NCBI GenBank assembly: GCA_963667785.2
Contig: CAXXMU010000002.1
Span: forward strand, 128,001-192,000
Direction: 5' to 3'
DNA from: Alphaproteobacteria bacterium
GTDB taxonomy: Bacteria; Pseudomonadota; Alphaproteobacteria; UBA828
DNA length: 64,000 bases
In this document: positions 16,795 through 61,022 of the stretch, in pieces
How the letters are laid out: each line of letters starts with the position of its first letter
Position numbering within the stretch: position 1 is the stretch's first letter
Translations under genes and position numbers: made by a program
Notes under the pieces: generated by a model
The model's input: only the letters and a program-made list of their open reading frames with translations
Databases searched by the model: none
Told to the model about the DNA's origin: nothing

Positions 16795-16797
16795 GGC

Positions 16798-17794: not shown

Positions 17795-17810
17795 GATACC
17801 GCCTCGATCG

Positions 17811-20425: not shown

Positions 20426-20703
20426 TCAACTCGTCCGTTGCGGCCGTCGGGCGACAGGTGCCGAACGCGATCCCGTCCGGCCGGGCCACCCTTCTCCCGT
20501 CGCCAACATAGCATCCCGGCCGCGCCCGCCAAACGCCGACGCGCGGGCCTGCTTGCCGATCGCGCCCCTATGCCGCGCCCGATACGCACTTAACAATCGG
20601 GCCGCGCTGTGCGAAAACCCGGCCCCGGCGGCCGCTTGCGCTCTTCGCGCATCCGGTAATTCCCTTTGTCGCCTTCTGGAGAAACGACGCAGCACCTTCG
20701 CCC

Positions 20704-30473: not shown

Positions 30474-30494
30474 TCCTGATCCGGCCATGTGCCC

Positions 30495-31604: not shown

Positions 31605-31684
31605 GCTGGTTGGTCCCCGCCGCCGCCGTCGCGAGGGCGGGATGACAGACGGGCGCGCGCCGGCCATGATCCGCCACCCCGTCC

Positions 31685-33109: not shown

Positions 33110-33180
33110 TCCGAGGAGACGGCATCCGGACGCCTATCGGACTTGCGATGCCGCTGCGCCGGCGGCACGACAATTTCCTG

Positions 33181-33244
33181 TTGACAGCCGGCGATGCACC
33201 GGCCACGTTTATCAACTAACAAAAAGAGATTGCGTAAATCGCAA
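33181..33244 (+). promoter_or_regulatory. Putative promoter (TTGACA) and 15-bp operator palindrome TTGCG-N5-CGCAA
   Basis: TTGACA at 33181; AT-rich stretch; perfect 5-bp arms at 33230-33244 upstream of a cluster encoding an IclR regulator. Confidence 0.5.
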
Positions 33245-33330
33245 GTTCGATGCCGCGTGCGGCACGCGAGGAGGATGGCTGCGAGGGCCGGCGGACGGCA
33301 GCCTGACTCCCGGCATCCGGAGGCAGCGTC

Positions 33331-35346
33331 ATGCCGAAGGGTTGGCAGGTCGGGATCGATGTCGGTGGCACGTTCACCGACGTGATCGCCGTGAGCCGGG
33401 CGCATGGCGAGGTCCGCGTTGCCAAGGTCCCCTCCCGCAGCGACGACCGCATCGCCGGTCTGATGGCGGCGCTCGCAGCCGTCGATCTCGACTGGTCGGC
33501 GGTGGACGATCTGATCCACGGCACGACCATCGTCACCAACGCCATCGTCCAGGGCCAGCACGCCAGGGTCGCGCTGATCGCCACCAAGGGGTTCTCGGAC
33601 ACGCTGGCGATCGGGCGCCAGAACCGGCGCCACCTCTACCGGCTCGACCTGCCGCCCAAGCTCCCGCCCCAGGTCCCCGCCGAGCGCCGCTTCGAGGTGA
33701 CCGAGCGGCTCGACCATGAGGGCCGGGTGCTGGTCGCGCTGAACCCGGACTCGGTAGACGACGCCGTCGATAGCATCGCGGCGTGCGGCGCCGAGGCCGT
33801 CGCCGTCTCGCTCCTCCATGCTTACGCGAACCCCGCGCACGAGGAGGCGCTGGGTGCGCGGCTGCGGGCGCGGGTTCCTTACGTGGCGCTCTCGCACCGG
33901 GTGAACCCCGAGGCGCGGGAGTACGAGCGCACGGCGACGACGGCGCTCAGCGCCGGCGTGATGCCGCTGGCCGCGTCCTATCTCGACGAGCTGGAGGAGG
34001 CGAAGCCGGCGGGCTCCGGCCTGCATCTCTTCCATTCCGCGGGCGGCATGGCATCGCCCGCGGCGCTCCGCGACTTGCCGCTCGGCCTCGCCGCCTCTGG
34101 CCCCGCCGCCGGTGTCGCTGCCGCAGGCCGCATGGCCCGCGCGCTCGGGCTGGAACGCGCCATCAGCTTCGACATGGGCGGAACCACTACCGACGTCTGC
34201 CTGATTCTCGACGGCGAGGCGCAGATTTCGAGCGACCGCTCCCTCGGCGGGCGGCCCCTGCGCCAGCCCATGGTGGCGGTGGAGTCCATCGGCGCGGGCG
34301 GCGGCTCCATCGCCCGGCTCGATCACGGCTCTCTCGCGGTCGGGCCGGAAAGCGCCGGCGCGGACCCGGGCCCGGCCTGCTACGCCAGGGGCGGCGACCG
34401 CCCCACGGTGACCGACGCCAATCTGGTGCTCGGCTATATGGACAAGGAGCGTGTTCTCGGCGGCGGCCTCAGCCTCGATGCCGCCGCCGCCCGCGACGCG
34501 CTGGCGCCGCTTGCCGCGGGCATGGAGATGGCCGTGGAGGGTGCCGCTCTGGGCGTCGTCAGGGTGGCCAACGCGGCCATGCTGCGCGCGCTGCGCCGGG
34601 TTACGGTGGAGCGCGGCGTGGATGGCCGCGGCTGCACGCTGCTCGCCTTCGGCGGCGCAGGCCCGATGCATGCGGTGGCGCTGGCGCGCGCCTTCTCCAT
34701 CGCCGACGTCGTGGTTCCCGCCCACTCCAGCATCTTCTCTGCGCTCGGCTGCGTCGGCGCGGAGATGAGCTACGCGCAGCAGCGCACGCTGCGCATGGCG
34801 TCGGACGCCTGGGACGGAACGCGCGTCGACCGGGTGCGGCGGGAGCTGCGCGCCGATCTCGCCGCGCCGCTCGCAGCCGCCGGCCATGACGAGGGCGAGC
34901 TTTCGGTGGAGGAGGTGGCATCGGTCCGCTACCGCAGCCAGAGCTACGCCATCGAGGTGGCGGATGCGTCGTTCGACGACCCGGCCCGCCTGGGCCGCGC
35001 CTTCAGGGAGCGGCATCGGGCGCTCTACGGCTTCGCGACCGAGGAGCCGTGGGAGCTGGAATCGATCCGCATGCGCCTCGCTGCGCCCCGCAACGGCCTC
35101 GCCCATCCGCCCGCCGCCGCGGCCAACGAGGCGCCCGAGCCGGTCGAGACGCTGCCGTGCACGTTCGGGCCCGGCGCGCCGCTGCTGACGCCCCGCTACG
35201 ACCGCGCCGGCCTCGGCCCCGACGTGCCGCTGGCGGGGCCCGTCATCGTCGACGACGCGTGGTCGACCGTCGTGGTGCCGCCCGGTGCGACGCTCACCGC
35301 CGATGCCGCCGGCCATCTCCACATCGCCACGGGGGCGGGCCGGTGA
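33331..35346 (+). CDS. Hydantoinase/oxoprolinase subunit A (ATP-dependent cyclic amide hydrolase)
   Basis: GIDVGGTFTD, HGTT, SGPAAG, DMGGTTTDV, GAGGGSIA, GPESAGADPGPACY, FGGAGPMH. Confidence 0.95.
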   Translation: MPKGWQVGIDVGGTFTDVIAVSRAHGEVRVAKVPSRSDDRIAGLMAALAAVDLDWSAVDDLIHGTTIVTNAIVQGQHARVALIATKGFSDTLAIGRQNRRHLYRLDLPPKLPPQVPAERRFEVTERLDHEGRVLVALNPDSVDDAVDSIAACGAEAVAVSLLHAYANPAHEEALGARLRARVPYVALSHRVNPEAREYERTATTALSAGVMPLAASYLDELEEAKPAGSGLHLFHSAGGMASPAALRDLPLGLAASGPAAGVAAAGRMARALGLERAISFDMGGTTTDVCLILDGEAQISSDRSLGGRPLRQPMVAVESIGAGGGSIARLDHGSLAVGPESAGADPGPACYARGGDRPTVTDANLVLGYMDKERVLGGGLSLDAAAARDALAPLAAGMEMAVEGAALGVVRVANAAMLRALRRVTVERGVDGRGCTLLAFGGAGPMHAVALARAFSIADVVVPAHSSIFSALGCVGAEMSYAQQRTLRMASDAWDGTRVDRVRRELRADLAAPLAAAGHDEGELSVEEVASVRYRSQSYAIEVADASFDDPARLGRAFRERHRALYGFATEEPWELESIRMRLAAPRNGLAHPPAAAANEAPEPVETLPCTFGPGAPLLTPRYDRAGLGPDVPLAGPVIVDDAWSTVVVPPGATLTADAAGHLHIATGAGR

Positions 35347-36938
35347 GCGGCGCCGTCGATCCCGTGACCCTCGAGGTGATCCGCCACGCGCTGACGGCGA
35401 CGGCGGAGGAGATGTCGCTCGTGGTCATGCGCTCGGCGCGCTCGCCGCTGCTGCGCGAGGCCGGCGACCTCTCGTCGGCGCTGACCGATGCCGACGGCCA
35501 CCTCATCGCCCAGGGCCGCGACATTCCCATGCACATGGGGGTGATGAGCTTCACCGTCCGCGAGTTCCTGAAGCGGGTGCCGCGCGAGCGGCTGGAGCCC
35601 GGCGACGTCTGGTTCCTCAACCTGCCGGAGGTCGGCGGCAACCACCTGCCGGACGTGAAGGCGATCCGGCCGATCTTCGTGGACGACGCGATCGTGGCCT
35701 TCGCGGCGAGCCTCGCCCACTGGGCGGATATCGGCGGCGCCGTGCCCGGCAGCTACGTCGCCGGCGCCACCGACGCCTGGCAGGAGGGCCTGCGCATCCC
35801 GCCCTTCCGTCTCTTCACCGCCGCCGGGCCCGACCGCGAGAAGCTCGACATGATCTGCGCCAACGTGCGCGGCGCGGACGAGCGCGAAGGCGACATCCTG
35901 GCCCAGGTCGCGGCCAGCCGGGCGGCCGAGGAGCGCGTGCACCAGATCTGCGCCGAGCACGGCACCGAGACGGTGACCGCCGCCATCGCCGCCATCCACG
36001 ACCGGGCCGAGGCGCAGATGCGCACAGCACTCGCGGCGATCCCCGACGGCGACTACGCGGGCGAGGACTGGCTCGACGACGATGCCGGCGGCGGCGGCCC
36101 CGTCGCCGTCCGCGTGCGCGCGACCATCGCGGGCGATCATGCGCGCTTCGACTTCTCGGAGACCGACGACGCGGCGCGGGGGCCGGTGAACACCACGCCC
36201 TTCATCGCCGCGGCCTCTGTCTTCTACGTGGTGAAGGCGCTGTTCGGTCCCGACATCCAGCCGAGCGGCGGCTGCTACCGGCCGCTGGAGATCGTGACCC
36301 GGCCCGGCTCGCTGCTCGATCCCGGCCCGGAAAGCCCCGTGGTGGGCGGCAATCACGAGACCTCGCAGCGGATCGCCGACGCCGTGTTCCGGGCGCTGGA
36401 GCCGACCGGGCCGGAGCGGCTCACGGCCGGCGGGCCGACCACGTCCGGCCTGGTGCTGTTCGGCGGCAGGCGGAGCGACGGTGCCTGGACCACGCTCTAC
36501 GAGGTCCACGGCGGCGGTGAGGGCGCGCGGCACGACCGCGACGGGGCGCCGGTGATCCGGGTCCACATGTCCAACGTGATGAACACGCCGGCCGAGGTGG
36601 TCGAGGCCGAGTATCCCATCCGCATCGAGTGCCAGCGCCTGCGCCGCGACTCCGGCGGTGCCGGCCGCCACCGCGGCGGCGAGGGGCTGCATCGCGAATA
36701 CAGGGTTCTGGGCGACGACATGTCGGTGACCTCGATGTTCGAGCGCCGCGTGGTGCCGCCCTACGGCCTGCAGGGCGGCGAGGAAGGCGCGCCCTTCCGC
36801 GTGACCGTCGTCCGTGCGGAAGGCCGCAGCTACGACATGCCGGGAAAGGCGAACCTCCGGCTCGGCGAGAACGACCTGGTCGTCGTCGAGAGCTGCGGCG
36901 GCGGCGGATACGGGCAGCCAGAAAGCGAAGGCCGATGA
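35343..36938 (+). CDS. Hydantoinase B/oxoprolinase family subunit
   Basis: GTG overlapping upstream stop; DPVTLEV, GGNHLPD, HWADIGG, QEGLRIPP, NTPAE, SGGAG..RGG, GGGGYG. Confidence 0.95.
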   Translation: MSGAVDPVTLEVIRHALTATAEEMSLVVMRSARSPLLREAGDLSSALTDADGHLIAQGRDIPMHMGVMSFTVREFLKRVPRERLEPGDVWFLNLPEVGGNHLPDVKAIRPIFVDDAIVAFAASLAHWADIGGAVPGSYVAGATDAWQEGLRIPPFRLFTAAGPDREKLDMICANVRGADEREGDILAQVAASRAAEERVHQICAEHGTETVTAAIAAIHDRAEAQMRTALAAIPDGDYAGEDWLDDDAGGGGPVAVRVRATIAGDHARFDFSETDDAARGPVNTTPFIAAASVFYVVKALFGPDIQPSGGCYRPLEIVTRPGSLLDPGPESPVVGGNHETSQRIADAVFRALEPTGPERLTAGGPTTSGLVLFGGRRSDGAWTTLYEVHGGGEGARHDRDGAPVIRVHMSNVMNTPAEVVEAEYPIRIECQRLRRDSGGAGRHRGGEGLHREYRVLGDDMSVTSMFERRVVPPYGLQGGEEGAPFRVTVVRAEGRSYDMPGKANLRLGENDLVVVESCGGGGYGQPESEGR

Positions 36939-37750
36939 ACGCACGAACGAAGCAGGGGAACGGTGCAGTGAAGCTGGATGGCAGGAAGGCAATCGTCACG
37001 GGCGCGGCGAAGGGCATGGGCGCCGCCATCACGACGACGCTGGCGCGCGAGGGCGCCGACGTCGTGCTGACCGCCCGCGACACCGAGCCGCTCGAACGGG
37101 TGGCGGAGGATGTCCGGGCGCTGGGGCGCACGGCCCACGTGATCGGCTGCGACGTGACCGAGGATGCCGAGGTCAAGGCCATGGTCGATGCGGCGCTCGG
37201 CGCCTTCGACGGGCGCATCGACATCCTGGTCAACATCGCCGGCGTCACCGGGCCGATCGAGACGCCGGTGCAGGACATCGACGTGGCCGACTTCGACTAC
37301 GTCATCACCGCCAACGAGCGCGGCACCTTCCTGCCCATCAAGTATGTGGTGCCGACCATGATCGCCCAGCGAAGCGGCAAGATCGTCAATATCGGCGGCA
37401 CCTCGGGCCTGCGCGGCTACGCCATGCGGACCGCCTACAGCGCGTCCAAGTGGGCGGTGCGCGGGATCACGCGCACCGTCGCGCTCGAGGTCGGCAAGTA
37501 CAACGTCAACGTCAACGCCGTCTGCCCCGGCATCGTCGAGACGCCGCGCATGCAGAAGCTCTGCGAGGAGAAGGCCCGCGTGCGCGGCTGGACGGTGGAC
37601 GAGGTGTACGACGAGTACGTGCAGGAGATGTGCCTCAAGCGCGTCACCACCTGCCAGGACGTGGCCAACGCCGTGCTCTTCATGGCGAGCGAGGACAGCC
37701 GCCAGATCACCGGCCAGGCCATCACGGTCGACGGTGGCTGGGACGTGTGA
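36935..37750 (+). CDS. Short-chain dehydrogenase/reductase
   Basis: TGAAKGMG, LVNIAG, YSASK catalytic motif, VDGG. Confidence 0.93.
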   Translation: MNARTKQGNGAVKLDGRKAIVTGAAKGMGAAITTTLAREGADVVLTARDTEPLERVAEDVRALGRTAHVIGCDVTEDAEVKAMVDAALGAFDGRIDILVNIAGVTGPIETPVQDIDVADFDYVITANERGTFLPIKYVVPTMIAQRSGKIVNIGGTSGLRGYAMRTAYSASKWAVRGITRTVALEVGKYNVNVNAVCPGIVETPRMQKLCEEKARVRGWTVDEVYDEYVQEMCLKRVTTCQDVANAVLFMASEDSRQITGQAITVDGGWDV

Positions 37751-37784
37751 GGCGGCAGCGCAGGCGATAGCGGGAGGCGTCACG

Positions 37785-38651
37785 ATGTACGCGCCGTTCG
37801 AACTGGACATTCCGAACGATCTGGCGGGCGCCTTGGCGGCGCTCGCGAACGGGGCCGGCGAGGCGGTTCTCCCCCTCGCCGGCGGCACCAACCTCATCGT
37901 CGACATCCGCGCCGGGCGCGAGCGGCCCGACCGGATGGTGGGCCTCGACGGGGTCGACGAGCTCAAGGGCATGGAGTTCGGGCCGGAGCGCGTCACCATC
38001 GGCGGCCGCACCACGGTGAGTGACCTGCTGCGCTCGCCCGAGATCGCCCGGGAGGCGCCCTCGCTGGTCGAAGCCGCGCGCCTCTTCGGCGGCCTGATGG
38101 TGCGCAACACAGGCACCGTCGCCGGCAACATCGCCAGCGGCTCGCCGGCGGCCGACCTGGTGCCGCCGCTGCTCACGCTCGACGCCGAGTTGGTGCTTCA
38201 GAGCGCCGCGTCCACGCGCACGCTGGCGCTGGACGACTACTACCTCGGCTACAAGCAGGACGCGCGGCGGCCGGACGAGCTGATCACCCGGATCTCGTGG
38301 CCGCGCCTGCCGGAGAACGCCGTCAACACCTTCTACAAGCTCGCCCGGCGCAAGGGCGACGCGATCACGGTGACCGGCGTGGCGGTGACGCTGGCGGCGG
38401 CGGGCGGCACCTGCACCAGGGCGCGGATCGCCCTCGCCTCCGTCGCGCCGGTGGTGCGCCGCGTCAAGGAGGCCGAGGCGCTGCTGGAGGGCCGGGCGCT
38501 GACGCCGTCGCTGATCGACGAGGCGGCGGAGGCGGCGGCGGAGGCGTGCACGCCCATCGACGATATCCGGGCCTCCGCCGATTACCGCCGACACACAGTC
38601 CGGGCGCTGACCCGCCGCCTCGTTGCCGGGGCGTGGGACCGGCTGGCCTAG
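37785..38651 (+). CDS. Xanthine dehydrogenase-family FAD-binding subunit
   Basis: AGGTNL, RNTGTVAGNIA..SP.AD, PIDDIRASADYR. Confidence 0.92.
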   Translation: MYAPFELDIPNDLAGALAALANGAGEAVLPLAGGTNLIVDIRAGRERPDRMVGLDGVDELKGMEFGPERVTIGGRTTVSDLLRSPEIAREAPSLVEAARLFGGLMVRNTGTVAGNIASGSPAADLVPPLLTLDAELVLQSAASTRTLALDDYYLGYKQDARRPDELITRISWPRLPENAVNTFYKLARRKGDAITVTGVAVTLAAAGGTCTRARIALASVAPVVRRVKEAEALLEGRALTPSLIDEAAEAAAEACTPIDDIRASADYRRHTVRALTRRLVAGAWDRLA

Positions 38652-38664
38652 GGGAGTGACGCGC

Positions 38665-39153
38665 ATGTCCGAGACAAGAAACATCACGCTCCGCATCAAC
38701 GGCCGCGAGGAGGAGGGGCGCTTCCCCGCCCATCGCACCCTGCTGGAGGCGCTGCGCCAGCTCGGCCACATGGAGGTGAAGTGCGGCTGCGAGAAGGGCG
38801 ACTGCGGCGCCTGCGCCGTGCTGCTGGACGGCATGGCCGTGGACAGTTGCCTGACGCTGGCCTGGATGGCGGCCGGCAAGGAGGTCACCACCGTCTCCGG
38901 CCTCGGCGATCTCGATGCGCCCCATCCCTTGCAGGAGGCGTTCGCCGACAGCGGCGCCGCGCAGTGCGGCTACTGCATTCCGGGGATCATCATCGCGGCC
39001 CAGGCGATTATCGGCGAGAACCCGGAGCCGACGGAGGACGACATCCGCCTCGGCCTCAGCGGCAATCTCTGCCGCTGCACCGGCTACACCAAGATCTTCG
39101 AGGCCATCGCCGACGCGGCCAGAGAGATGCGCGCCGAGGGAGGTGAGCAATGA
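38665..39153 (+). CDS. Xanthine dehydrogenase-family 2x[2Fe-2S] subunit
   Basis: [22 protein letters not shown]. Confidence 0.95.
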   Translation: MSETRNITLRINGREEEGRFPAHRTLLEALRQLGHMEVKCGCEKGDCGACAVLLDGMAVDSCLTLAWMAAGKEVTTVSGLGDLDAPHPLQEAFADSGAAQCGYCIPGIIIAAQAIIGENPEPTEDDIRLGLSGNLCRCTGYTKIFEAIADAAREMRAEGGEQ

Positions 39154-41492
39154 CCTACACCGACATCGATCCGGGGGCGCTGGCCAACGTCCAGTTCCGG
39201 CAGGTCGGCAAGCCGCTGACCCGCACCGACGCGCCGGGCAAGGTCACCGGGCGGACGCCCTACGCCGGCGACTACGTGATGCCGGGCATGCTGCACATGC
39301 GGGTGGTGCGCGCCGACATCGCGAGCGCCCGCCTCGTCCAGCTCGATGTCTCCCGCGCCAGGGCGCTCAAGGGTGTCGCCTGCGTGCTGACCGCCGCCGA
39401 CATGCCCGACCGCACGTCGGCCACCGACATCCCCGGCCAGACCGGCCAGAAGAGGCTGGATACCGACCAGCCGGTTCTGGTGAAGGATCGGGTCCGCTAC
39501 TTCGGCGAACCGCTCGCCCTGATCGCGGCGGAGACCCGTGACATCGCCGACCACGCGGCGGCGCTCGTCGAGTTCGAGCTTGAGCCGATCCCCGGCGTCT
39601 ACGATCCGCTGGAGGCGCTGAAGCCCGGCGCGCCGCAGGTCTATGGCGCCGACAACATCGTCGCCACGCGCAGGATCAGGAAGGGCGATGTCGAGGCGGG
39701 ATTCGCCCGGGCCGATCTCATCGTCGAGAACACCTACAAGACGCCGTTTCAGGAGCACGCCTTCCTGGAGCCCGAGGTGGGCCTCGCCTGGGTGGACGAG
39801 AACGACGTGGTCAACATCCGCGTCTCGACCCAGGTGATCGAGCACTTCCGGCCCATCGCCGACGCCATCGGCGTGCCGCACAACAAGGTCCGCGTGCGGG
39901 GCGCGCTGGTGGGCGGTGGCTTCGGCGGCAAGGAGGACATGACCGTCGAGGTCTATCTCGCGCTGCTCGCGAAGCACACGGGTAGGCCGGTGCGGCTCGA
40001 ATACTCGCGCGAGGATTCCTTCGTCGGCCACGGCAAGCGCCACCCCTTCATCCTCACCTACCGCACCGGGGTGACGAAGGAGGGCAAGATCACCGCCCTC
40101 GAGGTGACGATGATCGCGGACGCCGGCGCCTACGTCTTCCTCAGCCCCTACGTCATCCTCTACGCGCTGGTCGCAGCCCCCGGCCCCTACCGGGTCGACA
40201 ATCTCAACGTCTTCGCGCAGGCGGTCGCCACCAACAACATGTACACGAGCGCCTTCCGCGGCTTCGGCGCGCTGCAGGCCTGCGCGGCCTACGAGCAGCA
40301 GATGGACGAGATCGCGGACGCGCTCGGCATCGACCGCCTGGAGCTCCGCCGGCGCAACTTCCTGAAGACCGGCGAGCCCATGTCCACCGGCTTCGTCCCG
40401 CCGAGCGCCATCTGGACCGAGCAGTGCGCGGAGAAGGCCTGGGCCGGGCTGGGCGAGCCCACGCCGGCGCAAGGCCCGATACGGACCGGGCGCGGCCTCG
40501 CCTGCTACCAGCAGAGCTACGGCCGCCTCACCTTCCTGCACGACACCTCGGAAGCGTGGGTCGGCGTCGAGATGGACGGCACCGTCGTGGTGCGCTCCGG
40601 CGTCACCGACATCGGTGCCGGCCAGATTTCGGCGCTCGGCCAGATCGCGGTGGAGGTGCTGGGCGTCACGCTGGACAACGTCGTCATCTACAACAGCGAT
40701 TCCGCCGTGACCCCGCTCGCCGGCACCACGACCGCGACGCGCGCGCTCTACATGACCGGCAACGCCGCCAAGCAGGCGGCCGAAGGGCTTCGCGCCCGGC
40801 TGGTCGAACGCGCGGCGCAGGAATTCGGCGTGGCGCCCGACGAGATCGACTTGGGCTTCAACGAGGTCTTCGTCATCGACAGGCCGGAGAAGACCATGCC
40901 GCTGGTCGAGCTGGTGCGGATCTGCGCGGCTGAAGGCATCCACCGCTCGGAACTGGCCATCTTCCGTGCCCCGTTCGGCGATTTCCTCGATCCCGAGACC
41001 GGCCAGGGGCAGGCCCATCCCGACTATGCCTACGGCGCCCACGCGGTGGAGGTTTCCGTCGACGTGGAGACCGGCGAGGTCGAGGTGCTGAAGAGCGTGG
41101 CCGCGCACGATGTCGGCCAGTGCATCAACCCGGCGGCCGTTGAGGGCCAGATTCAGGGAGGCGCGCAGAACGGGCAGGGCTACGCGCTCAGCGAGGAGAT
41201 GCTCTACGAGGAGGGCCGCCTGGTCACGCCGTCGTTCAGCGAGTACCTGATGCCGACGGCCATGGACATGCCGAAGGTCGAGTGCATCATCCTCGAATCC
41301 CGCAGCGGCGTCGGGCCCTTTGGCGCCAAGGGCATCGGCGAGCCGGCCATGACTGCCGTGGCGCCCGCCATCGCCAACGCCGTCGCCGACGCCATCGGCG
41401 TGCGCGTCTTCGAGATGCCGATCACGCCGGAGCGCGTGGTCCGGGCGTTGCACGGGAAGAGCGCTGCGGAACAGGGCCGGGATCCGGCGTGA
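39150..41492 (+). CDS. Xanthine dehydrogenase-family molybdopterin-binding subunit
   Basis: GGGFGGK, AFRGFG, QIQGG, KGIGEP (catalytic Glu). Confidence 0.95.
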   Translation: MTYTDIDPGALANVQFRQVGKPLTRTDAPGKVTGRTPYAGDYVMPGMLHMRVVRADIASARLVQLDVSRARALKGVACVLTAADMPDRTSATDIPGQTGQKRLDTDQPVLVKDRVRYFGEPLALIAAETRDIADHAAALVEFELEPIPGVYDPLEALKPGAPQVYGADNIVATRRIRKGDVEAGFARADLIVENTYKTPFQEHAFLEPEVGLAWVDENDVVNIRVSTQVIEHFRPIADAIGVPHNKVRVRGALVGGGFGGKEDMTVEVYLALLAKHTGRPVRLEYSREDSFVGHGKRHPFILTYRTGVTKEGKITALEVTMIADAGAYVFLSPYVILYALVAAPGPYRVDNLNVFAQAVATNNMYTSAFRGFGALQACAAYEQQMDEIADALGIDRLELRRRNFLKTGEPMSTGFVPPSAIWTEQCAEKAWAGLGEPTPAQGPIRTGRGLACYQQSYGRLTFLHDTSEAWVGVEMDGTVVVRSGVTDIGAGQISALGQIAVEVLGVTLDNVVIYNSDSAVTPLAGTTTATRALYMTGNAAKQAAEGLRARLVERAAQEFGVAPDEIDLGFNEVFVIDRPEKTMPLVELVRICAAEGIHRSELAIFRAPFGDFLDPETGQGQAHPDYAYGAHAVEVSVDVETGEVEVLKSVAAHDVGQCINPAAVEGQIQGGAQNGQGYALSEEMLYEEGRLVTPSFSEYLMPTAMDMPKVECIILESRSGVGPFGAKGIGEPAMTAVAPAIANAVADAIGVRVFEMPITPERVVRALHGKSAAEQGRDPA

Positions 41493-41517: not shown

Positions 41518-42279
41518 ATGTCCGAGACCAACGACAAGCCGCTGAGCCGGTACATCCGGGTGCTGGAGACGGTCGCCCACGCCAGGACGGGCGTGACGCT
41601 CACGGACATCGCCAGGGAGCTGGAGCTGCATCCGGGGACGGCGCATCGCCTGATCCGCGGTCTCGTCGCTCTCGACCTGCTGCACAGTCCGGCCGGAACC
41701 AAGAGCTACGTGGCCGGTGCCAGGCTTCAGTCTCTCCTCCACGCGACCATGGACCGCGCGGGCTATGCGGCGTTCGCGAAGTCCGTCCTCGACGGGCTCG
41801 TGGCGGAGTTCGGCGAGACCGCCCATCTGGCGCGGCTGAGCGGCGACTTCGCCGAGTCCGTGCTGATGGAGCAGCCGTCGGGCTCCGACCGCGCCTTCGT
41901 GCAGCCGGGGCGCCAGCTTCCGTTGCACGCGGCGGCGTCGGGCAAGGCGATCCTCGCCTTTCAGGACGAGGACTTCGTGGCGCGCTATCTCACGCGGCCG
42001 CGCGAGCAGTTCACGGAAAGGACCAAGGTCGGCGAGACCGCCATCCGCAACGAGATCGACCGCATTCGCGCCGACGGGATGGCGGTCTGCGACAACGAGC
42101 TCGACAGCGGCGTGCTCAGCTACGGGCACCCGGTGCGGATCGGCGGCGGTCAGGTCCTCTATTCGGTCGGCATCACCGGGCTCGCCGACCGCTTCCGCCC
42201 CATCGATCGCTCCAGGATCAAGCTGAGGCTCTCGGAGGCGGCGGCCGATCTCGGCAGGAGGCTCGGGTTCACAGGCTAA
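41518..42279 (+). CDS. IclR family transcriptional regulator
   Basis: N-terminal HTH (LTDIARELELHPGTAHRL), GETAHL, LPLHAAASGKAILAF. Confidence 0.93.
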   Translation: MSETNDKPLSRYIRVLETVAHARTGVTLTDIARELELHPGTAHRLIRGLVALDLLHSPAGTKSYVAGARLQSLLHATMDRAGYAAFAKSVLDGLVAEFGETAHLARLSGDFAESVLMEQPSGSDRAFVQPGRQLPLHAAASGKAILAFQDEDFVARYLTRPREQFTERTKVGETAIRNEIDRIRADGMAVCDNELDSGVLSYGHPVRIGGGQVLYSVGITGLADRFRPIDRSRIKLRLSEAAADLGRRLGFTG

Positions 42280-42291: not shown

Positions 42292-43233
42292 ATGGTCGAC
42301 TCACGCTTGGCGGACATCGTTCGAAACTGCCGGAACACGACGGCCAGCAGCTGCGGCGGCTATCTGGAGCCGACGGCCACGGGTCAGCCGGGAGCCTACG
42401 TCTCGACGATTCTGCTTTCGACCGGCAGCGTCAATCTCGAGCAGTTTCCGGGCTACCCGTTCGAGGAGGATCTGGACCAGGGCATGGCCGAGATCGTGTC
42501 CTACGACCGCGCCGAGTGTAACGATTCCTATATCGGCCAGGTCAACATGCTGCAGGCGTCGTCGTTCAGCGGCGTCAACGGCGCCATCTGGGGCTACGAC
42601 CTGGCGATCGAACCCCGCATCGGCAAGACCTATCCCGTCGGCCGCATCGAGAACATTCCCATCTACTCGCTCATTCCCCTGCGCGACGCCACCCGGCAGC
42701 TCTTCGGCGTCGCCGAGAGCCGGCACTTTCCGCCGCAGGAAGGGGCGATGGTCGTCTGTGCCGAGAAGTACCGGACGAGCACGGTCTCCGACGGCAATCT
42801 CTGGATCTGGTGCGCGCTCGGCTTCGCGATTGCGGAGGATCGCGAGAACCATGCCTGCCTGTTCATGGAAGATACGGGCTCGCTGGCGCTGGGGCCGGAC
42901 GGGGGACAGGCGGTGCGGGAGAGGCTCGACGACAGGCTCAACAGGATCGCCTACGCGGCGTACCTCTGCGGCGTGAACCAAGGCGCGACCTACGAGAAGA
43001 TCTATATCGGCTGGAAGGCGTCCCACATTCCCGAGAACCATGTGGGCTGCGCGCTCGCCTGCGCGCCGTACGTGACGCTGCCGACGGGCGCGTTCAGGAA
43101 CATCACGCCGGAGACGGGCATCCTGGAGCTTTCGACGGACGAGTGGCTGTCCCGGGTCGGCCACTCCAGGGTGGACGAGCCCGACTACGAGCTCGAGACC
43201 CTGACCGGGCCGAACATCCCGGCCGTGCAGTAG
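42292..43233 (+). CDS. hdcA: Pyruvoyl-dependent histidine decarboxylase proenzyme
   Basis: IVSYDRAE, YIGQVNM..ASSF (Ser-Ser self-cleavage site), CAEK, FMED, APYV correspond to the conserved motifs of Lactobacillus-type HdcA. Confidence 0.88.
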   Translation: MVDSRLADIVRNCRNTTASSCGGYLEPTATGQPGAYVSTILLSTGSVNLEQFPGYPFEEDLDQGMAEIVSYDRAECNDSYIGQVNMLQASSFSGVNGAIWGYDLAIEPRIGKTYPVGRIENIPIYSLIPLRDATRQLFGVAESRHFPPQEGAMVVCAEKYRTSTVSDGNLWIWCALGFAIAEDRENHACLFMEDTGSLALGPDGGQAVRERLDDRLNRIAYAAYLCGVNQGATYEKIYIGWKASHIPENHVGCALACAPYVTLPTGAFRNITPETGILELSTDEWLSRVGHSRVDEPDYELETLTGPNIPAVQ

Positions 43234-43279: not shown

Positions 43280-44365
43280 TTGACCGAGACGAGCATAGCG
43301 ATCGACGTGCGTAACGCGGTGAAGCGCTTCGGCGCGGTCACGGCGCTCGCCGGCGCGTCGCTGACGATCCGGGACAACGAGTTTTTCACGCTGCTCGGCC
43401 CTTCGGGCTGCGGCAAGACCACCCTGCTCCGCCTCATCGCCGGCTTCGAGGAGATCACCGAGGGCGAGATCCTCCTCTACGGCGAGGACCTCGGGGCGCT
43501 GCCGCCCAACCGGCGCCCGATCAACACCGTCTTCCAGCACTACGCGCTCTTCCCGCACATGACGGTGGCGGAGAACGTGGCCTTCGGCATGCGGAGGCTC
43601 GGCTGGAGCAAGGCCGACATCGAGGACCGGACGCTGCGCATCCTCGATCTGGTGAAGCTCGGCGACCTCGCGGCGCGGAGGCCCGCCCAGCTTTCGGGCG
43701 GGCAGCAGCAGCGGGTGGCACTCGCCCGCGCCATGGCGCCCCGGCCGAAGGTGCTCCTGCTCGACGAGCCGCTGTCCGCGCTCGACCTCAAGCTGCGTCA
43801 GGCCATGCGGATCGAGCTGAAGCAGATCCAGAAGGATACCGGCATCACCTTCGTCTTCGTCACCCACGACCAGGAAGAGGCGCTGACCATGTCAGACCGC
43901 ATCGCCGTGATGTCGGCGGGCGAGATCCGGCAGGTGGGCACGCCACGCGAGATCTACGAGGCGCCCCTCGACCGCTTCGTGGCCGACTTCATCGGCGAGA
44001 CCAACGTGCTGGACGCGACCGTGCGGCGGGGGCCGGACGATGCACTGACCTGCCACCTTGCCAACGGGGCCGCGTTCCCGTGCCACGCGAGCGTGCCGCC
44101 AGGAGACGGGGCCTTCGCACACGTGCTGATTCGGCCGGAGCGCCTCTCCCTCGTGCCCGAGGCGGTGTGCGACACCGGCCTCACGGGCGTGGTCGACCAG
44201 GCCGTCTACCTCGGCACCGACATCCAGTACGGCGTGCGGCTGGATGGGGGGCCGGACGTCCTGGTCCGCGCGCAGAATGTCGGCGCCGACGCGGTGACCT
44301 ATCGCACCGGTGATCGCGTCGGGCTCGCCATCGCCCCCGGCGCTGCGCGACTGCTGGTGGACTGA
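43280..44365 (+). CDS. potA: Polyamine-type ABC transporter ATP-binding protein
   Basis: GPSGCGKT, INTVFQ.YALFPH, LSGGQQQR, VTHDQEEAL. Confidence 0.88.
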   Translation: MTETSIAIDVRNAVKRFGAVTALAGASLTIRDNEFFTLLGPSGCGKTTLLRLIAGFEEITEGEILLYGEDLGALPPNRRPINTVFQHYALFPHMTVAENVAFGMRRLGWSKADIEDRTLRILDLVKLGDLAARRPAQLSGGQQQRVALARAMAPRPKVLLLDEPLSALDLKLRQAMRIELKQIQKDTGITFVFVTHDQEEALTMSDRIAVMSAGEIRQVGTPREIYEAPLDRFVADFIGETNVLDATVRRGPDDALTCHLANGAAFPCHASVPPGDGAFAHVLIRPERLSLVPEAVCDTGLTGVVDQAVYLGTDIQYGVRLDGGPDVLVRAQNVGADAVTYRTGDRVGLAIAPGAARLLVD

Positions 44366-45291
44366 TGGCCGGCGAGCTCGCCAGCACGCGCGCGGTCTCC
44401 CGCACCTTCGCGCCGGTGCGCACCCACTTGCTGATCCCGACCTGGGTGATCATCGGCTTCTTCCTCGTGGCGCCGGTGCTGATGATGCTCGTCTACTCCT
44501 TCCTGACGAAGGAGTTTCGGGGCGGCGTGATCTGGGACTTCTCGCTCGCGGCCTACGACCAGTTCATCTTCGACCGCGGCCTCTTCGGCGACGATCCGCC
44601 GCAGATCGAGTGGACCTACATCGTCATCTTCGCGCGCTCGATCGTGCAGGCCGCCGTCGCCACCGTGCTCTGCCTCATCATCGGCTTCCCGACCGCCTAC
44701 TTCATCGCGACCCGCTCGCCCGCGACGCGCTCGATGTGGCTCTTCCTGGTGACGGTTCCCTACTGGGTGAACCTGCTCATCCGCACGGTCTCGATGAAGT
44801 TCCTCATCCGCGACAACGGGCCGCTCAACGAGGCGCTGCTCGGTCTCGGGGTCATCAGCGAGCCGATCGCGCTCATCAACACCGATTTCGCCGTGCAGCT
44901 CGGCCTCTTCTACTCGTATCTGCCCTTCATGGTGCTGCCGATCTACGCCTCGGTGGAGCGCTACGACTTCGCCCTTTCGGAGGCGGCGGCCGACCTCTAC
45001 GCCAACCGCTGGACGATCCTGCGCAGGGTGATCCTGCCGATCGTGCGGCCAGGCATCGTGGCGGGCTGCATCCTGGTCTTCGTGCCAAGCCTCGGCGCCT
45101 TCCTCGCGCCCGACCTTCTCGGCGGCGCGAAGAACTTCCTGATCGGCTCGCTGATCGAGGAGCAGTTCAAGGGCAACGCCGGCAACTGGCCCTTCGGCGC
45201 TGCCGCCTCGATGATCCTGCTCTCCCTCGTGCTGATCGCGCTCTTCATCTACGCGCGCCGGCAGGCGCTGCGCAGCGCGAAGGCCGCCTGA
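44365..45291 (+). CDS. potB: Polyamine-type ABC transporter permease
   Basis: [33 protein letters not shown]. Confidence 0.85.
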
Positions 45292-45292: not shown

Positions 45293-46114
45293 ATGCGGCG
45301 CAGGCTCGACATCCGCCGCTATCCCGGCTTCCTGCCGGTGACGATCCTCTGCCTCGTGGTGCTCTACGCGCCGCTGCTGGTGGTGATGGTCTACAGCTTC
45401 AACGACTCGCTCTCGATCACCCGCTGGGGCGGGTTCAGCTTCCGCTGGTACATGGACATCTTCACCGGGCCGGAATCGGCCAAGTTCAAGGATGCGGCGT
45501 GGAACTCGCTCACCATCGCGCTCTGCGCGGCGACGGCCAGTACGACCATCGCCACCGCCGCGGCGGTCGCGATGGTGCGGGGCGGCGCCTTCCGCGGCAA
45601 GGCGCTCAACCTCGCGCTCATCAGCATGCCGATCATGGTGCCGGAGATCGTCACCGCGGTGGCGACGCTGGTCTTCTTCAGCGCCATCGGTTTCACGCTC
45701 GGCTATCTCTCCATTCTCGTCGCCCACATCGTCTTCTGCATTCCGTTCGCGTACCTGCCGATCGCGGCACGCCTGCAGGGGATCGACGGCAGCTACGAGG
45801 AGGCCGCGCAGGATCTTTACGCGAGCCGCTTCCAGGCGTTCCTGCGCGTTCTCATGCCGTTGATGGCGCCCGGCATTCTCGCGGGCTTTCTGCTGGCATT
45901 CATCATCTCGCTGGACGATTTCATCATCACCAACTTCATCAAGGGCGCCGGTATCGAGACCCTGCCCACGGCGATATTCGGGGCCGTGAAGCAGGGCATC
46001 AAACCCAACATCATGGCGCTCAGCACCATCATGCTCTCCGTCTCGATCCTGATCGTCACGCTCTCCTATTTCATCAGCCGGTACGGTCGTCAGGGAACGA
46101 AGGCGGAGGCGTGA
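45293..46114 (+). CDS. potC: Polyamine-type ABC transporter permease
   Basis: [28 protein letters not shown]. Confidence 0.85.
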
Positions 46115-46152
46115 GTTTTTTGCGGCAATCAAACTCAACCAAGGAGGCCACA

Positions 46153-47190
46153 ATGCGCTACTTGCTCAAAGCCGGAATGGCGGCGTTGGCCCTGACCCTT
46201 GTCGCAGGCGCGGCACAGGCGCAGGAGAAGCTCTCGATCTACCACTGGTTCGAGTACATCCCGCAGGAGCTGCTGGACAAGTTCTCCGCGGAAACGGGAA
46301 TCGAGGTGACCATGGACACCTTCGATTCCAACGAGGCCATGCTGGCATCGCTCAAGGCCGGCAAGCTCGGCTCCTACGACGTGGCGGTGCCGGGCGATTA
46401 CATGGTCGAGATCATGATCGGCGAAGGCATGCTCGACACCGTCGCGGACGGCGAGCTCGCCAACTTCGCGAACATCGAGCAGCAGTGGCTGGACGTGCCC
46501 TTCGACATGGGCCGCAAGCACTCGATCCCCTACCAGTGGGGCTCGACCAGCTTTTCGGTCAACCGGGACGTCTATCAGGGCGACATCAACGACACCGCCA
46601 TCGTCTACGACCCGCCGGACGAGCTTAAGGGCAGGATCAACGTGCTCGACTCCCAGGGCGAGGTCATGCTGCTGGCTGCCCTCCACCTCGGCATTCCGCA
46701 GTGCTCGACCGACCGCGAGCAGCTCAAGCAGCTCGACGCGCTGCTGCAGGCGGCGAAGCCGCACTGGGCCTCGTTCAACTCCGACGGCGCCAAGGACGTG
46801 CTGGTCTCCGGCGACGCCGCGGTGGGGATGATCTGGAACGGCTTCGGCGCCAAGGCACGCGCCGAGGGCGCCAACATCGAGTACGCCTACCCGCGCCAGG
46901 GTTATGTCGTCTGGATGGACAATGTCGTGCTGCTGAAGGACGCCCCCAACCGGGCCAGCGCGATCAAGTTCATGGACTTCCTGCTGGAGCCGGAGAACAT
47001 CGCCGCGGTCACCAACTACGCGCGCTATGCCGCCGGCGTGACGGGCGTGACTCCGCATCTCGATCCGGAGCTCGCCAGCCAGCCCGAATCGGTGCCGCCG
47101 GCCGACGCGCCTGCCGGCACCTTCGTCGCCGTGTGCGATCAGGCGACGCAGGAGGTCTACGACACCATGTGGACCCGCCTGAAGAAGTAG
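46153..47190 (+). CDS. potD: PotD/PotF-type substrate-binding protein (candidate histamine binder)
   Basis: AAGGAGG RBS, signal peptide, WFEYI, FDSNE, PGDY, PYQWG, WMDN. Confidence 0.85.
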   Translation: MRYLLKAGMAALALTLVAGAAQAQEKLSIYHWFEYIPQELLDKFSAETGIEVTMDTFDSNEAMLASLKAGKLGSYDVAVPGDYMVEIMIGEGMLDTVADGELANFANIEQQWLDVPFDMGRKHSIPYQWGSTSFSVNRDVYQGDINDTAIVYDPPDELKGRINVLDSQGEVMLLAALHLGIPQCSTDREQLKQLDALLQAAKPHWASFNSDGAKDVLVSGDAAVGMIWNGFGAKARAEGANIEYAYPRQGYVVWMDNVVLLKDAPNRASAIKFMDFLLEPENIAAVTNYARYAAGVTGVTPHLDPELASQPESVPPADAPAGTFVAVCDQATQEVYDTMWTRLKK

Positions 47191-47274: not shown

Positions 47275-49347
47275 ATGAGCGTTGATTCGCGTTTCGACAT
47301 TCTGCTTCAGCCCATCGAGATCGGGCCCGTCACCGCCCGCAACCGCTTCTACCAGGTGCCGCATTGCACCGGCATGGGCTACCGCGACCCGACGGCGCTC
47401 GCCCACATGCGCGGCGTCAAGGCCGAAGGGGGCTGGGCCGTGGTCTGCACCGAGCAGGTCGAGTTCCACTGGACCTCGGAGATCACGCCCTTCATCGAGC
47501 TCCGGCTCTGGGACGACCGCGACATTCCGATGCTCGCCAGGATGGCGGAGCACGTCCACGCGCACGGCGCGCTCGCCGGGCTGGAGCTTTGCTACAACGG
47601 CGCGCACGCGCCCAACTTCTATTCGCGCGAAGTGCCGCTGGCGCCGACGGGCCTGCCGGTCGCGAGCTTCAGTTACGAGCCCGTCCAGGCGCGCAGCATG
47701 GACAAGCAGGACATCCGCAACGTCCGCCGCTGGCACAGGGCGGCGGCGCTTCGCGCCCGGCAGGCGGGCTACGACCTGATCTACGTGTACGCCGGCCACG
47801 GGCTGAGCTTCCTCCATCACTTCCTCTCCAGGGAGTTCAATCACCGCACGGACGAATACGGCGGCTCGCTGGAGAACCGCGTCCGGCTCCTCAAGGAGCT
47901 CCTGACCGACACCAGGGAGGCGGTGGGCGACACCTGCGCCGTTCCCTGTCGCCTCTCGATGGACGAGCTGCGCGGGGGCGTCGGGCTGGAGAAGGCCGAG
48001 ACCGAGGACATGATCGGACTCGTGGCCGAGATTCCGGACCTCTGGGACGTCTGCCTCGCCTCCTGGGAGAACGACAGCATGCCGTCCCGCTTCGGCGAGG
48101 AGGGCGGGCAGGAGCCCTACATCGACGGCGTGAAGAAGCTCACCACCAAGCCCGTGGTGGGCGTCGGCCGCTACACCTCGCCCGACCGCATGGCGTCCAT
48201 CATCCGCAAGGGCATCGTCGACCTGATCGGCTGCGCGCGGCCCTCCATCGCCGATCCCTTCCTGCCGCGAAAGGTGGAGGAGGGGCGCATCGAGGACATC
48301 CGCGAGTGCATCGGCTGCAACATCTGCGTCTCCGGCGACTTCACCATGTCGCCCATCCGCTGCACCCAGAACCCGACCATGGGGGAGGAGTGGCGCCGGG
48401 GCTGGCATCCGGAGCGCATCCGGCCGAAGGAGAGCGACAAGCCCGTCCTCGTCGTCGGCGCCGGCCCCGCCGGACTGGAGGCGGCACAGGCGCTCGGCAA
48501 GCGGGGCTACGAGGTGACCCTGGCGGAGCAGGCCACGGAGCTCGGCGGCCGCGTGGCAAAGGAGTGCCGCCTGCCGGGGCTCGCCGCCTGGGGCCGGGTT
48601 CGCGACTGGCGCGTCGAGCAGCTTCACAAGCTGCCGAACGTGAGCGTCTACCTGGATTCACGCCTCGATGCGGAGGCCGTCCTTGAGTTCGGCTGCCCCC
48701 GCGTCGTCATCGCCACCGGGTCGCGCTGGCGCGGCGACGGGGTGGGCCGCCACTGGACGACGCCGGTGCCGACCGGGGACGGCGCGCAGGTGCTGACGCC
48801 CGACGACATCATGGAGGATCGTCTGCCGCAGGGCCGGCGCGTCCTCGTCTGGGACGACGATCACTACTACATGGCCAGCGTGATGGCCGAGCTCCTGGCG
48901 GAGAAGGGCTTCGACACCACCTACGTTACGCCCGCGTCGGAGGCCTCGACCTGGTCGCGCAACACCATGGAGCAGCACTTCGCGCAGGCGCGCATGCTGG
49001 AGAAGGGAATTCGCATCCAGCCGTTCCGGACGCTAAACCGCATCGCGCCGGGCGCGGTCGCGCTCTCGTGCGTTCACACGGGCCGGGAGGAGGAGCTGGA
49101 GGCCGATGCCGTGCTCCTCGTCACCTCCCGCACGCCGTCGGACGAGCTCGCGACCGCGCTCGCGCGCCTGCACGAGAGGTGGTCGGACGCCGGTCTCGAA
49201 GCCGTCGACGCCATCGGCGACGCGCTCGCGCCGGCGACCATCGCGCATGCCGTCTACGCCGGCCGGCGCTACGCGGAGGAGCTCGACGGCCCGGGGGTCA
49301 CGGGCGATGCGGTGCCCTTCAAGCGCGAGCTTGCCGAATTGATCTAG
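47275..49347 (+). CDS. Histamine dehydrogenase (trimethylamine dehydrogenase family; 6-S-cysteinyl-FMN, [4Fe-4S])
   Basis: NRFYQVPHC.GMGYRDP, CTEQVE.H.TS.I.PFIELR.WDD, SWE.DS, CIGCNIC...C motifs match histamine dehydrogenase (Nocardioides type) better than TMADH, as recalled. Confidence 0.85.
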   Translation: MSVDSRFDILLQPIEIGPVTARNRFYQVPHCTGMGYRDPTALAHMRGVKAEGGWAVVCTEQVEFHWTSEITPFIELRLWDDRDIPMLARMAEHVHAHGALAGLELCYNGAHAPNFYSREVPLAPTGLPVASFSYEPVQARSMDKQDIRNVRRWHRAAALRARQAGYDLIYVYAGHGLSFLHHFLSREFNHRTDEYGGSLENRVRLLKELLTDTREAVGDTCAVPCRLSMDELRGGVGLEKAETEDMIGLVAEIPDLWDVCLASWENDSMPSRFGEEGGQEPYIDGVKKLTTKPVVGVGRYTSPDRMASIIRKGIVDLIGCARPSIADPFLPRKVEEGRIEDIRECIGCNICVSGDFTMSPIRCTQNPTMGEEWRRGWHPERIRPKESDKPVLVVGAGPAGLEAAQALGKRGYEVTLAEQATELGGRVAKECRLPGLAAWGRVRDWRVEQLHKLPNVSVYLDSRLDAEAVLEFGCPRVVIATGSRWRGDGVGRHWTTPVPTGDGAQVLTPDDIMEDRLPQGRRVLVWDDDHYYMASVMAELLAEKGFDTTYVTPASEASTWSRNTMEQHFAQARMLEKGIRIQPFRTLNRIAPGAVALSCVHTGREEELEADAVLLVTSRTPSDELATALARLHERWSDAGLEAVDAIGDALAPATIAHAVYAGRRYAEELDGPGVTGDAVPFKRELAELI

Positions 49348-53434: not shown

Positions 53435-53446
53435 AGGGAGGTGGAG

Positions 53447-58832: not shown

Positions 58833-58869
58833 CGCCCGCGGCAACCGGAACGATCGCGGGAGAAAGGCG

Positions 58870-59343
<474 letters not shown>

Positions 59344-59356
59344 GGGGGAGGGGCCG

Positions 59357-61011: not shown

Positions 61012-61022
61012 GGGAGGGGGCG

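Follow-up and report, generated by a model that had tools for sequence, protein, structure and literature searches.

A pyruvoyl-type histidine decarboxylase homologue in a predicted histamine uptake and oxidation operon of an alphaproteobacterial genus

Described systems and the locus in question

Pyruvoyl-dependent histidine decarboxylases (HDCs; EC 4.1.1.22) have been studied almost only as producers of histamine, in food spoilage and in gut bacteria, and there they are paired with an exporter. In the Firmicute cassette (e.g., Tetragenococcus halophilus pHDC, or HdcA of Lactobacillus 30a, structure 1PYA), the decarboxylase gene hdcA is accompanied by an antiporter gene (hdcC/hdcP), hdcB, and hisS, and its role is acid resistance with secretion of histamine. 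Here, we describe a homologous gene at 42292..43233 of a 64,000-nucleotide stretch, hereafter the window, from an alphaproteobacterium of the UBA828 lineage (assembly GCA_963667785.2, contig CAXXMU010000002.1, positions 128,001 to 192,000). Its product shares with the Firmicute enzymes the Pfam family, the Ser-Ser site, the catalytic and contact residues, and the predicted fold, but it is about 31% identical to them; in place of the antiporter, HdcB, and hisS, one finds an importer and a predicted histamine-oxidizing enzyme, and the predicted role is catabolic.

The organism probably burns histidine via histamine rather than secreting the histamine. The specific proposal, to which we give somewhat more credence than doubt, is a catabolic module that leads from histidine to histamine and on to imidazole acetaldehyde, with the decarboxylase as its entry, in a lineage mostly without urocanase. 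From sequence comparison, we infer the substrates, the direction of flux, and the physiological role as follows. A cytoplasmic, pyruvoyl-dependent histidine decarboxylase would mature autocatalytically at Ser90|Ser91 without an HdcB helper; histamine would enter the cytoplasmic pool either by PotABCD-type uptake or by decarboxylation of intracellular histidine; and a dehydrogenase would oxidize it to imidazole-4-acetaldehyde and ammonium, with the electrons passing to the respiratory chain and an adjacent molybdenum enzyme as the candidate for oxidation of the aldehyde. The decarboxylase would let a pre-existing histamine-utilization operon consume histidine too, where the urocanase (Hut) route is mostly absent. 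We favor a catabolic module because histamine is the only metabolite common to two unrelated enzymes in one gene string, and because the importer's orthologue accompanies histamine catabolism elsewhere. Consumption is preferred over secretion because neither an HdcC-like antiporter nor a PF13520 permease was found in the genome.

The strategy of decarboxylating an amino acid and then oxidizing the amine is familiar from pseudomonads, which convert arginine to agmatine and lysine to cadaverine and then oxidize or transaminate the amine as a nutrient; those routes use pyridoxal phosphate (PLP) decarboxylases, whereas the window encodes a pyruvoyl enzyme. The literature searched yielded no histidine equivalent built on a pyruvoyl enzyme, and no operon holding both histamine dehydrogenase and histidine decarboxylase genes turned up in the full-text literature searched (subscription journals were outside its coverage). 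The enzyme family, the dehydrogenase, the transporter type, and antiporter-free proteobacterial homologues are already known; what we did not find described in the literature searched is a pyruvoyl histidine decarboxylase within a histamine-oxidizing uptake operon. If the proposal is true, a nutrient pathway has taken over this enzyme as its opening step and does for histidine what the arginine-agmatine and lysine-cadaverine routes do for their amino acids. Histamine could then be assigned as substrate to this PotABCD subtype, maturation in a Gram-negative host would be seen to do without HdcB, and histidine and histamine would be indicated as currencies exchanged by sponges with a symbiont genus that is abundant and uncultured. 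In practical terms, the gain is modest: a substrate-range test case for the large uncharacterized part of PF02329 and possibly histamine-specific enzymes for biosensing.

The published Hin pathway (PMC8231116, PMC6467879) has the same logic of uptake and oxidation and the same predicted first product, imidazole acetaldehyde. It begins, however, with the aminotransferase HinC and takes up histamine through the permease HinA, where the window encodes a flavoprotein dehydrogenase and an ATP-binding cassette (ABC) importer; Hin has no decarboxylase that feeds histidine in, whereas the window cluster has one. Homologues of the Hin aldehyde dehydrogenase, monooxygenase, and hydrolase are absent from the window cluster but present in a comparison operon (G024, see below).

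The initial annotation had presented the gene as a Gram-positive type in a proteobacterium, in contrast to the PLP enzymes typical of Gram-negative histamine producers. This framing goes too far, since homologues that lack an antiporter have already been annotated in further Proteobacteria; PGAP names pyruvoyl-type HDC in Salipiger, Methylocystis, Rhizobium, Roseibium, Yoonia, and others. PF02329 genes of other Alphaproteobacteria (Salipiger, Methylocystis, and Rhizobium leguminosarum plasmids; Roseibium, Yoonia, and Thalassococcus) likewise have no antiporter nearby, but they form a separate clade at 35-43% identity to the window protein. Their contexts are varied and often rich in insertion sequences, with no histamine dehydrogenase or Pot-type transporter. 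A survey records PF02329 genes in Proteobacteria and counts only those that bear an antiporter (PMC8465708). Phylogeny does not place the window protein near the Firmicute enzymes either; it groups with Theionarchaea-type sequences. In a maximum-likelihood (ML) tree of 30 sequences, the genus together with one 65%-identical protein (P0021, whose host is not among the order's 49 genomes) is sister to a clade that holds Theionarchaea (support 100/99), the Rhodobacterales genes lie apart from the clade of the window protein, and the branch that leads to Tetragenococcus HdcA is very long. The closest relatives of the decarboxylase of the genus are archaeal-type sequences at about 50% identity.

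The decarboxylase, the dehydrogenase, and the importer

The features of the gene string are as follows (aa, amino acids; ORF, open reading frame; GC3, GC content at third codon positions):

41518..42279, + strand: IclR-family regulator (PF09339 and PF01614), beside transporter genes in all related loci examined
42292..43233, + strand: pyruvoyl-type histidine decarboxylase proenzyme homologue, 313 aa, from ATG (42292) to TAG (43231-43233) (PF02329, PDB alignment, AlphaFold2 model)
42493-42516, + strand: IVSYDRAE motif, aa 68-75
42556..42567, + strand: ASSF, aa 89-92, predicted self-cleavage and pyruvoyl-forming site Ser90|Ser91 (alignment to PDB chains)
43280..44365, + strand: PotA-like ABC ATPase (PF00005 and TOBE_2)
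44365..45291, + strand: PotB-like permease (ORF and GC3 pattern; its twin on contig C7 matches PF00528)
45293..46114, + strand: PotC-like permease (ORF and GC3 pattern; its twin on contig C7 matches PF00528)
46147..47190, + strand: PotD-type periplasmic amine-binding protein, histamine being the putative ligand (SBP_bac_8, NCBIfam PotD, PDB PotD)
47275..49347, + strand: histamine dehydrogenase-like iron-sulfur flavoprotein, 690 aa (similarity to 6de6 and 3k30)

The decarboxylase is taken to start at the ATG at 42292 because the alternative GTG at 42286 lies inside the 12-bp IclR spacer and because homologues start with MVD or MAD. The IclR stop lies 12 bp before this ATG, and an AGGGA stretch resembling a Shine-Dalgarno sequence lies about 10 nt 5' of it. 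The initial annotation had given the same start and had pointed to SYDRAE, ASSF, a conserved Lys, FMED, and APYV, all of which are borne out in the ORF: Lys159 (Lys155 in the Lactobacillus 30a enzyme), FMED at aa 191-194 (Phe195-Glu197-Asp198), and APYV at aa 258-261. It had also suggested a hidden Markov model search, and the Pfam model PF02329 ("Histidine carboxylase PI chain") indeed matches with 147.7 bits against a cut-off of 25 (E 5e-43, profile positions 18-290 of 294), well outside what chance would yield.

The protein matches both chains of the Lactobacillus 30a enzyme (1pya/1hq6; alpha chain, E 8e-22), and Ser90|Ser91 aligns with Ser81|Ser82, where the beta chain ends and the alpha chain begins; cleavage there would give a predicted beta chain of aa 1-90 and a predicted alpha chain of aa 91-313. 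Eleven of 11 Lactobacillus 30a positions are identical (Ile59, Tyr62, Asp63, Glu66, Ser81, Ser82, Phe83, Lys155, Phe195, Glu197, and Asp198; numbering transferred by hand from the PDB alignment), and these we take to be the substrate-contact, catalytic, and cleavage residues of HDC in the 1PYA structure. Among 32 aligned family members S90, S91, and F92 are invariant, as are most of the 11 active-site positions. An AlphaFold2 model built on the 32-homologue alignment (predicted local distance difference test, pLDDT, 81; predicted template modeling score, pTM, 0.83) has 1pya_B as its top Foldseek match (E 1.4e-12, target TM 0.78); pyruvoyl arginine decarboxylases come next. Proteins 90% identical to the window protein are labeled "hypothetical protein" at NCBI. 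Taken at the level of sequence, it is a superfamily member with a fully conserved histidine-type active site and no close kinship to any tested enzyme.

Pairwise ratios of nonsynonymous to synonymous substitution rates (dN/dS) among the orthologues are 0.03-0.23; these orthologues are under purifying selection. GC content by codon position is 0.60/0.47/0.90, the same pattern as in the neighbors, and the region shows no compositional anomaly. A recent transfer, judged by composition, was rejected, GC3 being 0.90 as in the neighbors with no GC dip.

The initial annotation had supposed a pairing with a histamine-destroying enzyme, and a good candidate is encoded at 47275-49347, on the same strand and in the same tight gene string. 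This flavoprotein scores 894 bits against 6de6 (Rhizobium sp. 4-9) and 890 against 3k30 (Nocardioides simplex), versus 537 against trimethylamine dehydrogenase (1djn), and it is about 60% identical, end to end, to both solved histamine dehydrogenases. The N. simplex enzyme reportedly also oxidizes agmatine. Like both enzymes, the window flavoprotein retains the Cys31 link to flavin mononucleotide, the Fe-S Cys motif, and the Tyr172/His175/Asp267 triad, but it differs from them at Asn115 and Tyr181. The proposed histamine-binding residues of the N. simplex enzyme, as listed in PMC10180351, are Gln65, Ile74, Phe77, Glu79, Asn115, Tyr181, Trp267, and Asp358; six of the eight are retained. At the positions that separate histamine dehydrogenase from the trimethylamine type with its aromatic bowl, the flavoprotein has Gln, Glu, and Asp. 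Within the genome, 12 paralogue alignments place the histamine-type residue set only in the window copy and in its contig C7 twin (whose alignment begins at position 172, which leaves 6 of the 12 positions for comparison), and others carry the trimethylamine-type aromatic pattern.

The genome shows a strong expansion of the trimethylamine/histamine dehydrogenase family: it has seven matches at E<=1e-100, and genomes of the sister family have as many as 14. The copies are not alike in their active-site residue sets (e.g., G000:C6:770352-772412, C6:542804-544900, and C6:786117-788207), which suggests a broad repertoire for amine oxidation.

The window binding protein scores 211.6 bits against NCBIfam PotD, below the cut-off, and matches Escherichia coli PotD in the PDB with E 2e-58; it is of the PotD type, and its ligand should therefore be an amine rather than an amino acid. 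A more specific indication comes from a genome of another alphaproteobacterial family (G024), in which the binding protein is 71% identical and PotABC are 57-72% identical to those of the window. These genes lie in an operon (L130, G024:C6:550000-569999, 6030-17458) for a RidA-like protein, DUF1028, an aldehyde dehydrogenase, a histamine dehydrogenase (55% identical to that of the window), an M20 hydrolase, PotABCD, and a flavin monooxygenase. By its gene content, this is an apparently complete histamine-utilization operon, and it resembles the enzyme logic of the published Hin pathway (PMC8231116, PMC6467879). The G024 genome has no PF02329 gene. Because the G024 orthologues sit in a histamine-dehydrogenase operon, this PotABCD subtype accompanies histamine dehydrogenase in two lineages that are not related. 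A search around the window cluster for downstream genes of the Hin kind found none; the closest counterparts of the G024 aldehyde dehydrogenase, M20 hydrolase, and monooxygenase are 36-37% identical and located elsewhere.

From IclR to the dehydrogenase, the genes form a string on a single strand with spacers of 12-84 bp, and the arrangement suggests that IclR, the decarboxylase, PotABCD, and the dehydrogenase are co-transcribed. No terminator-like site lies between genes of the string, the single match in the stretch (45657) being inside potC; promoter- and terminator-like sites are no commoner than in shuffled sequence, and the scan is therefore uninformative.

The initial annotation had reported no antiporter, hdcB, or hisS beside the gene. 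This is true of the 64-kb window and extends to the host genome (98% complete, 6.6% contamination): HdcC and PF13520 (APC permease) have no match in the genome (control for the latter positive in 10 of 14 genomes), and the best genome match to Tetragenococcus HdcB has an E of 0.34, from a one-sequence query that a very distant homologue could escape. Urocanase is absent from the host genome and present in 3 of 20 congeners and 4 of 44 family genomes; because it is mostly absent, the decarboxylase would be the sole recognizable entry to histidine breakdown in most of the genus. PF00221 (aromatic ammonia-lyase) has a single weak match in the genome (G000:C1:278141-279436, about 93 bits, divided between two segments of a 521-aa frame), with no accompanying urocanase.

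Distribution in the genus and competing explanations

Of 20 other species in the genus, 15 carry an intact PF02329 ORF, and none was found in the 23 genomes of other genera of the family, the five genomes of the sister family (the order comprises 49 genomes in all), or 400 other Alphaproteobacteria drawn evenly from the class. The decarboxylase would appear to be a genus-specific accessory entry point that was gained once by the genus. Across the genus, a core of hydantoinase, short-chain dehydrogenase, molybdenum enzyme, IclR, and PotABCD is constant, and the decarboxylase and dehydrogenase genes vary. The order IclR-decarboxylase-PotABCD-dehydrogenase is seen in the window, L001, L004, and L049, as well as in G419, G403, G413, G420, and G411 (judged in these five by the coordinates of separate matches); in L007/G418, the decarboxylase gene is directly 3' of the dehydrogenase gene. 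The decarboxylase thus occupies two alternative sites, the gap between IclR and potA or the position after the dehydrogenase, always within the operon.

In three loci (L003, which is G410, L005, and L008), the operon continues into other genes after potD. In L003, four other ORFs (15461-20670) stand at the position of the congeners' dehydrogenase gene, which may have been replaced there. One congener whose genome is 100% complete (G402) has IclR-PotABCD-dehydrogenase without the decarboxylase gene; a deletion scar was looked for and rejected, as its 88-bp IclR-potA spacer has only the last ~15 bases in common with the decarboxylase-potA spacer of the window; loss and never having gained the gene are indistinguishable.

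A second copy of the cluster is present in the same bin on contig C7 (L011, 14,963 bp), running from the molybdenum enzyme subunits through IclR, the decarboxylase, PotABCD, and the dehydrogenase to a threonine dehydratase, at about 85% protein identity. Its dehydrogenase gene is in two frames, split near residue 121-123, and its decarboxylase is near-identical to P0017, which stands for a different cluster of congener proteins (branch length 0 vs 0.031). A true duplication was rejected given the repetition of the whole cluster with its flanking threonine dehydratase, the likeness to P0017, and the 6.6% contamination; the copy is probably a co-binned related strain and not a paralogue.

As to habitat, runs labeled "sponge metagenome" from six studies hold parts of a 7.9-kb stretch, and in four such runs from four studies, 28-30 of 30 bins are covered by contigs that are at least 90% alike. 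Runs with small shares of it (X14-X19) are excluded from the habitat evidence. The initial annotation had raised an association with animals; the near-identical DNA in such runs from several studies lends this some support.

Several results weigh against the route from histidine to imidazole acetaldehyde and should be kept in mind. The decarboxylase scores 149.1 bits against the NCBIfam equivalog TIGR00541, below the cut-off of 346.65, and its identity to characterized Firmicute enzymes is only about 31%. In the dehydrogenase, two of the eight proposed histamine-binding positions are changed (Asn115 to His and Tyr181 to Leu), and the Asn110/115 position is reported to modulate the preference between histamine and agmatine (PMC10180351). 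No enzyme for imidazole acetaldehyde or imidazole acetate was identified with confidence in the cluster, and a specific function for the molybdenum enzyme was rejected, as its NCBIfam and PDB matches point to no single activity. In seven of the 15 decarboxylase carriers (G410, G414, G405, G417, G404, G408, and G407), the best dehydrogenase homologue is 73-75% identical and lies outside the operon; the constant partners of the decarboxylase are therefore IclR, PotABCD, and the molybdenum cluster, and not the dehydrogenase. Urocanase and decarboxylase are not complementary, since G405 and G406 hold both and other genera of the family neither; complementarity across the genus was rejected for want of a clean pattern. 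On the supporting side, a library recorded as metatranscriptomic has contigs at least 90% alike in 28 of 30 bins, the IclR/decarboxylase junction among them, but these are assembled contigs from relatives, from which no transcription, strand, or joint transcript can be inferred.

Some of these results would fit the same chemistry on another substrate (e.g., a ring-methylated histidine or another basic amino acid), with the importer and dehydrogenase handling the matching amine, an explanation that we hold to be unlikely but deserving of attention. The sub-threshold equivalog score, the distance of the clade from all characterized enzymes with the long branch to Tetragenococcus HdcA, the two altered dehydrogenase positions, and the many paralogous amine dehydrogenases in these genomes lend themselves to it, as do the sister Theionarchaea-type genes that adjoin pyruvoyl arginine or tyrosine decarboxylase genes (L051, L060, and L050) and the lower histamine specificity of the N. 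simplex enzyme relative to the Rhizobium enzyme (PMC10180351). Against this, all residues that contact the imidazole and the carboxylate in Lactobacillus 30a HDC are unchanged, and the dehydrogenase retains the Gln, Glu, and Asp of the histamine type rather than the aromatic bowl of the trimethylamine type. To our knowledge, moreover, no member of PF02329 has a non-histidine substrate. A different role altogether is that of a signal: histamine could act as an effector on the sponge host or on neighboring microbes, with the dehydrogenase and importer setting or resetting its level. Histamine is a known inter-kingdom signal for bacteria (PMC8231116), the "sponge metagenome" runs of several studies hold near-identical DNA, and seven of 15 congeners carry the decarboxylase with no dehydrogenase in the operon. 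We nevertheless judge this role improbable, for no exporter was linked or detected with the HdcC and PF13520 queries, the sole transporter of the operon is a binding-protein-dependent importer, and a degrading enzyme alongside fits consumption better than release. The suggestion of the initial annotation that the pair tunes histamine levels finds no specific support.

Two further explanations carry much less weight than the catabolic module. The decarboxylase might serve to buffer cytoplasmic pH as in lactic acid bacteria, the amine being oxidized instead of exported. Decarboxylation does consume a proton. Acid resistance is also the characterized role of the family (PMC8465708); yet there is no antiporter to bring in substrate and build a gradient, the IclR regulator is of a catabolic type and the neighboring enzymes are catabolic, and the apparent marine sponge habitat, known from the habitat label only, is non-acidic, all of which makes buffering very unlikely. 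We give almost no credence to the idea that the gene is a passenger, in decay or without function, or else a product of faulty binning: although the bin has 6.6% contamination and a second, 85%-identical copy of the whole cluster on a 15-kb contig, the window copy lies on a 974-kb contig with GC3 of 0.90 like its neighbors, the ORF is intact in 15 of 20 congeners with dN/dS of 0.03-0.23, and all catalytic residues are kept. Decay or artefact is thereby largely refuted.

Neighboring genes and the wider family

Upstream of IclR, the window encodes the following:

30489 (start), + strand: enolase-superfamily enzyme (Pfam)
31685 (start), + strand: amidase (Pfam)
33331 and about 35400 (starts), + strand: hydantoinase A and B (Pfam), conserved upstream in related loci
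36950 (start), + strand: short-chain dehydrogenase (Pfam), conserved upstream in related loci; the upstream gene block spans 30489..37750
37782..41492, + strand: three-subunit enzyme of the molybdenum hydroxylase/aldehyde oxidase family, with flavin adenine dinucleotide (FAD), 2Fe-2S, and Mo subunits (Pfam), its position conserved in all related loci

The molybdenum enzyme matches xanthine dehydrogenase, 4-hydroxybenzoyl-CoA reductase, nicotinate dehydrogenase, and aldehyde oxidoreductase, but reaches the cut-off for none of them; it may oxidize imidazole acetaldehyde or hydroxylate the ring. The genes at 30489..37750 are candidates only for membership of the same pathway. A bolder extension would make the whole string of ~30.5-49.3 kb (19 kb) an undescribed pathway from histidine and histamine to aspartate, one without the oxygen-dependent imidazole-acetate monooxygenase of the Hin route. 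It would proceed from the decarboxylase to the histamine dehydrogenase, the molybdenum enzyme, hydantoinase A/B, and the amidase. The molybdenum enzyme would oxidize the aldehyde, hydroxylate the imidazole ring with water-derived oxygen, or do both, and so form a cyclic amide; ring opening would fall to the ATP-dependent hydantoinase A/B, and release of aspartate to the amidase. We rate this extension as a long shot; were it true, a new route of histidine degradation in sponge symbionts that lack urocanase would have co-opted a pyruvoyl decarboxylase as its entry enzyme. At least three more gene sets of the molybdenum hydroxylase (xanthine dehydrogenase/aldehyde oxidase) family lie in the window, at 52571-56403, 56463-60157, and 60851-63964.

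The PF02329 family is small, with 279 clusters at 50% identity among 1.84 billion representatives. Family context was surveyed in 79 metagenomic loci that encode relatives of the decarboxylase. A tblastn search found an HdcC-like antiporter in 17 of them; for 48 loci with no antiporter match, 146 neighboring ORFs were extracted and 77 of these scanned against Pfam, which added AA_permease_2 in four more loci. The IclR/PotABCD arrangement is present in only two of the 79 (L048 and L049), which at 86-87% identity belong to the same genus, and no surveyed locus outside the genus has a histamine dehydrogenase adjoining the decarboxylase. Other contexts without an antiporter include DUF885, S10 peptidases, and sensor kinases (DUF885/GAF-kinase at L066, L122, and L111).

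A pyruvoyl arginine decarboxylase gene follows the PF02329 gene in three loci (L051, 1154-1726; L060, 785-1357; and L092, 8903-9529), two of which belong to the Theionarchaea-type sister clade, whose members are 48-50% identical to the window protein. A PLP tyrosine decarboxylase is encoded near another Theionarchaea-type relative (L050, 4177-6039). Judged by gene content, the Theionarchaea-type loci look like clusters of several amine-forming decarboxylases.

Outside the genus, a polyamine-type binding protein (SBP_bac_8) is encoded directly 3' of the PF02329 gene in L100 (1256-2389) and L114 (1122-2249). These binding proteins are 28-29% identical to the window PotD and may represent an independent pairing of decarboxylase and importer.

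In 13 loci (L052, L053, L055, L056, L058, L062, L065, L067, L071, L072, L075, L080, and L105), the PF02329 gene adjoins, on the opposite strand, a gene for a Ser/Thr protein kinase of ~800 aa with tetratricopeptide (TPR) repeats; the decarboxylases of these loci are ~41-45% identical to the window protein. The pairing of decarboxylase and kinase-TPR gene is recurring, and in L058, two decarboxylase paralogues flank the kinase-TPR gene.

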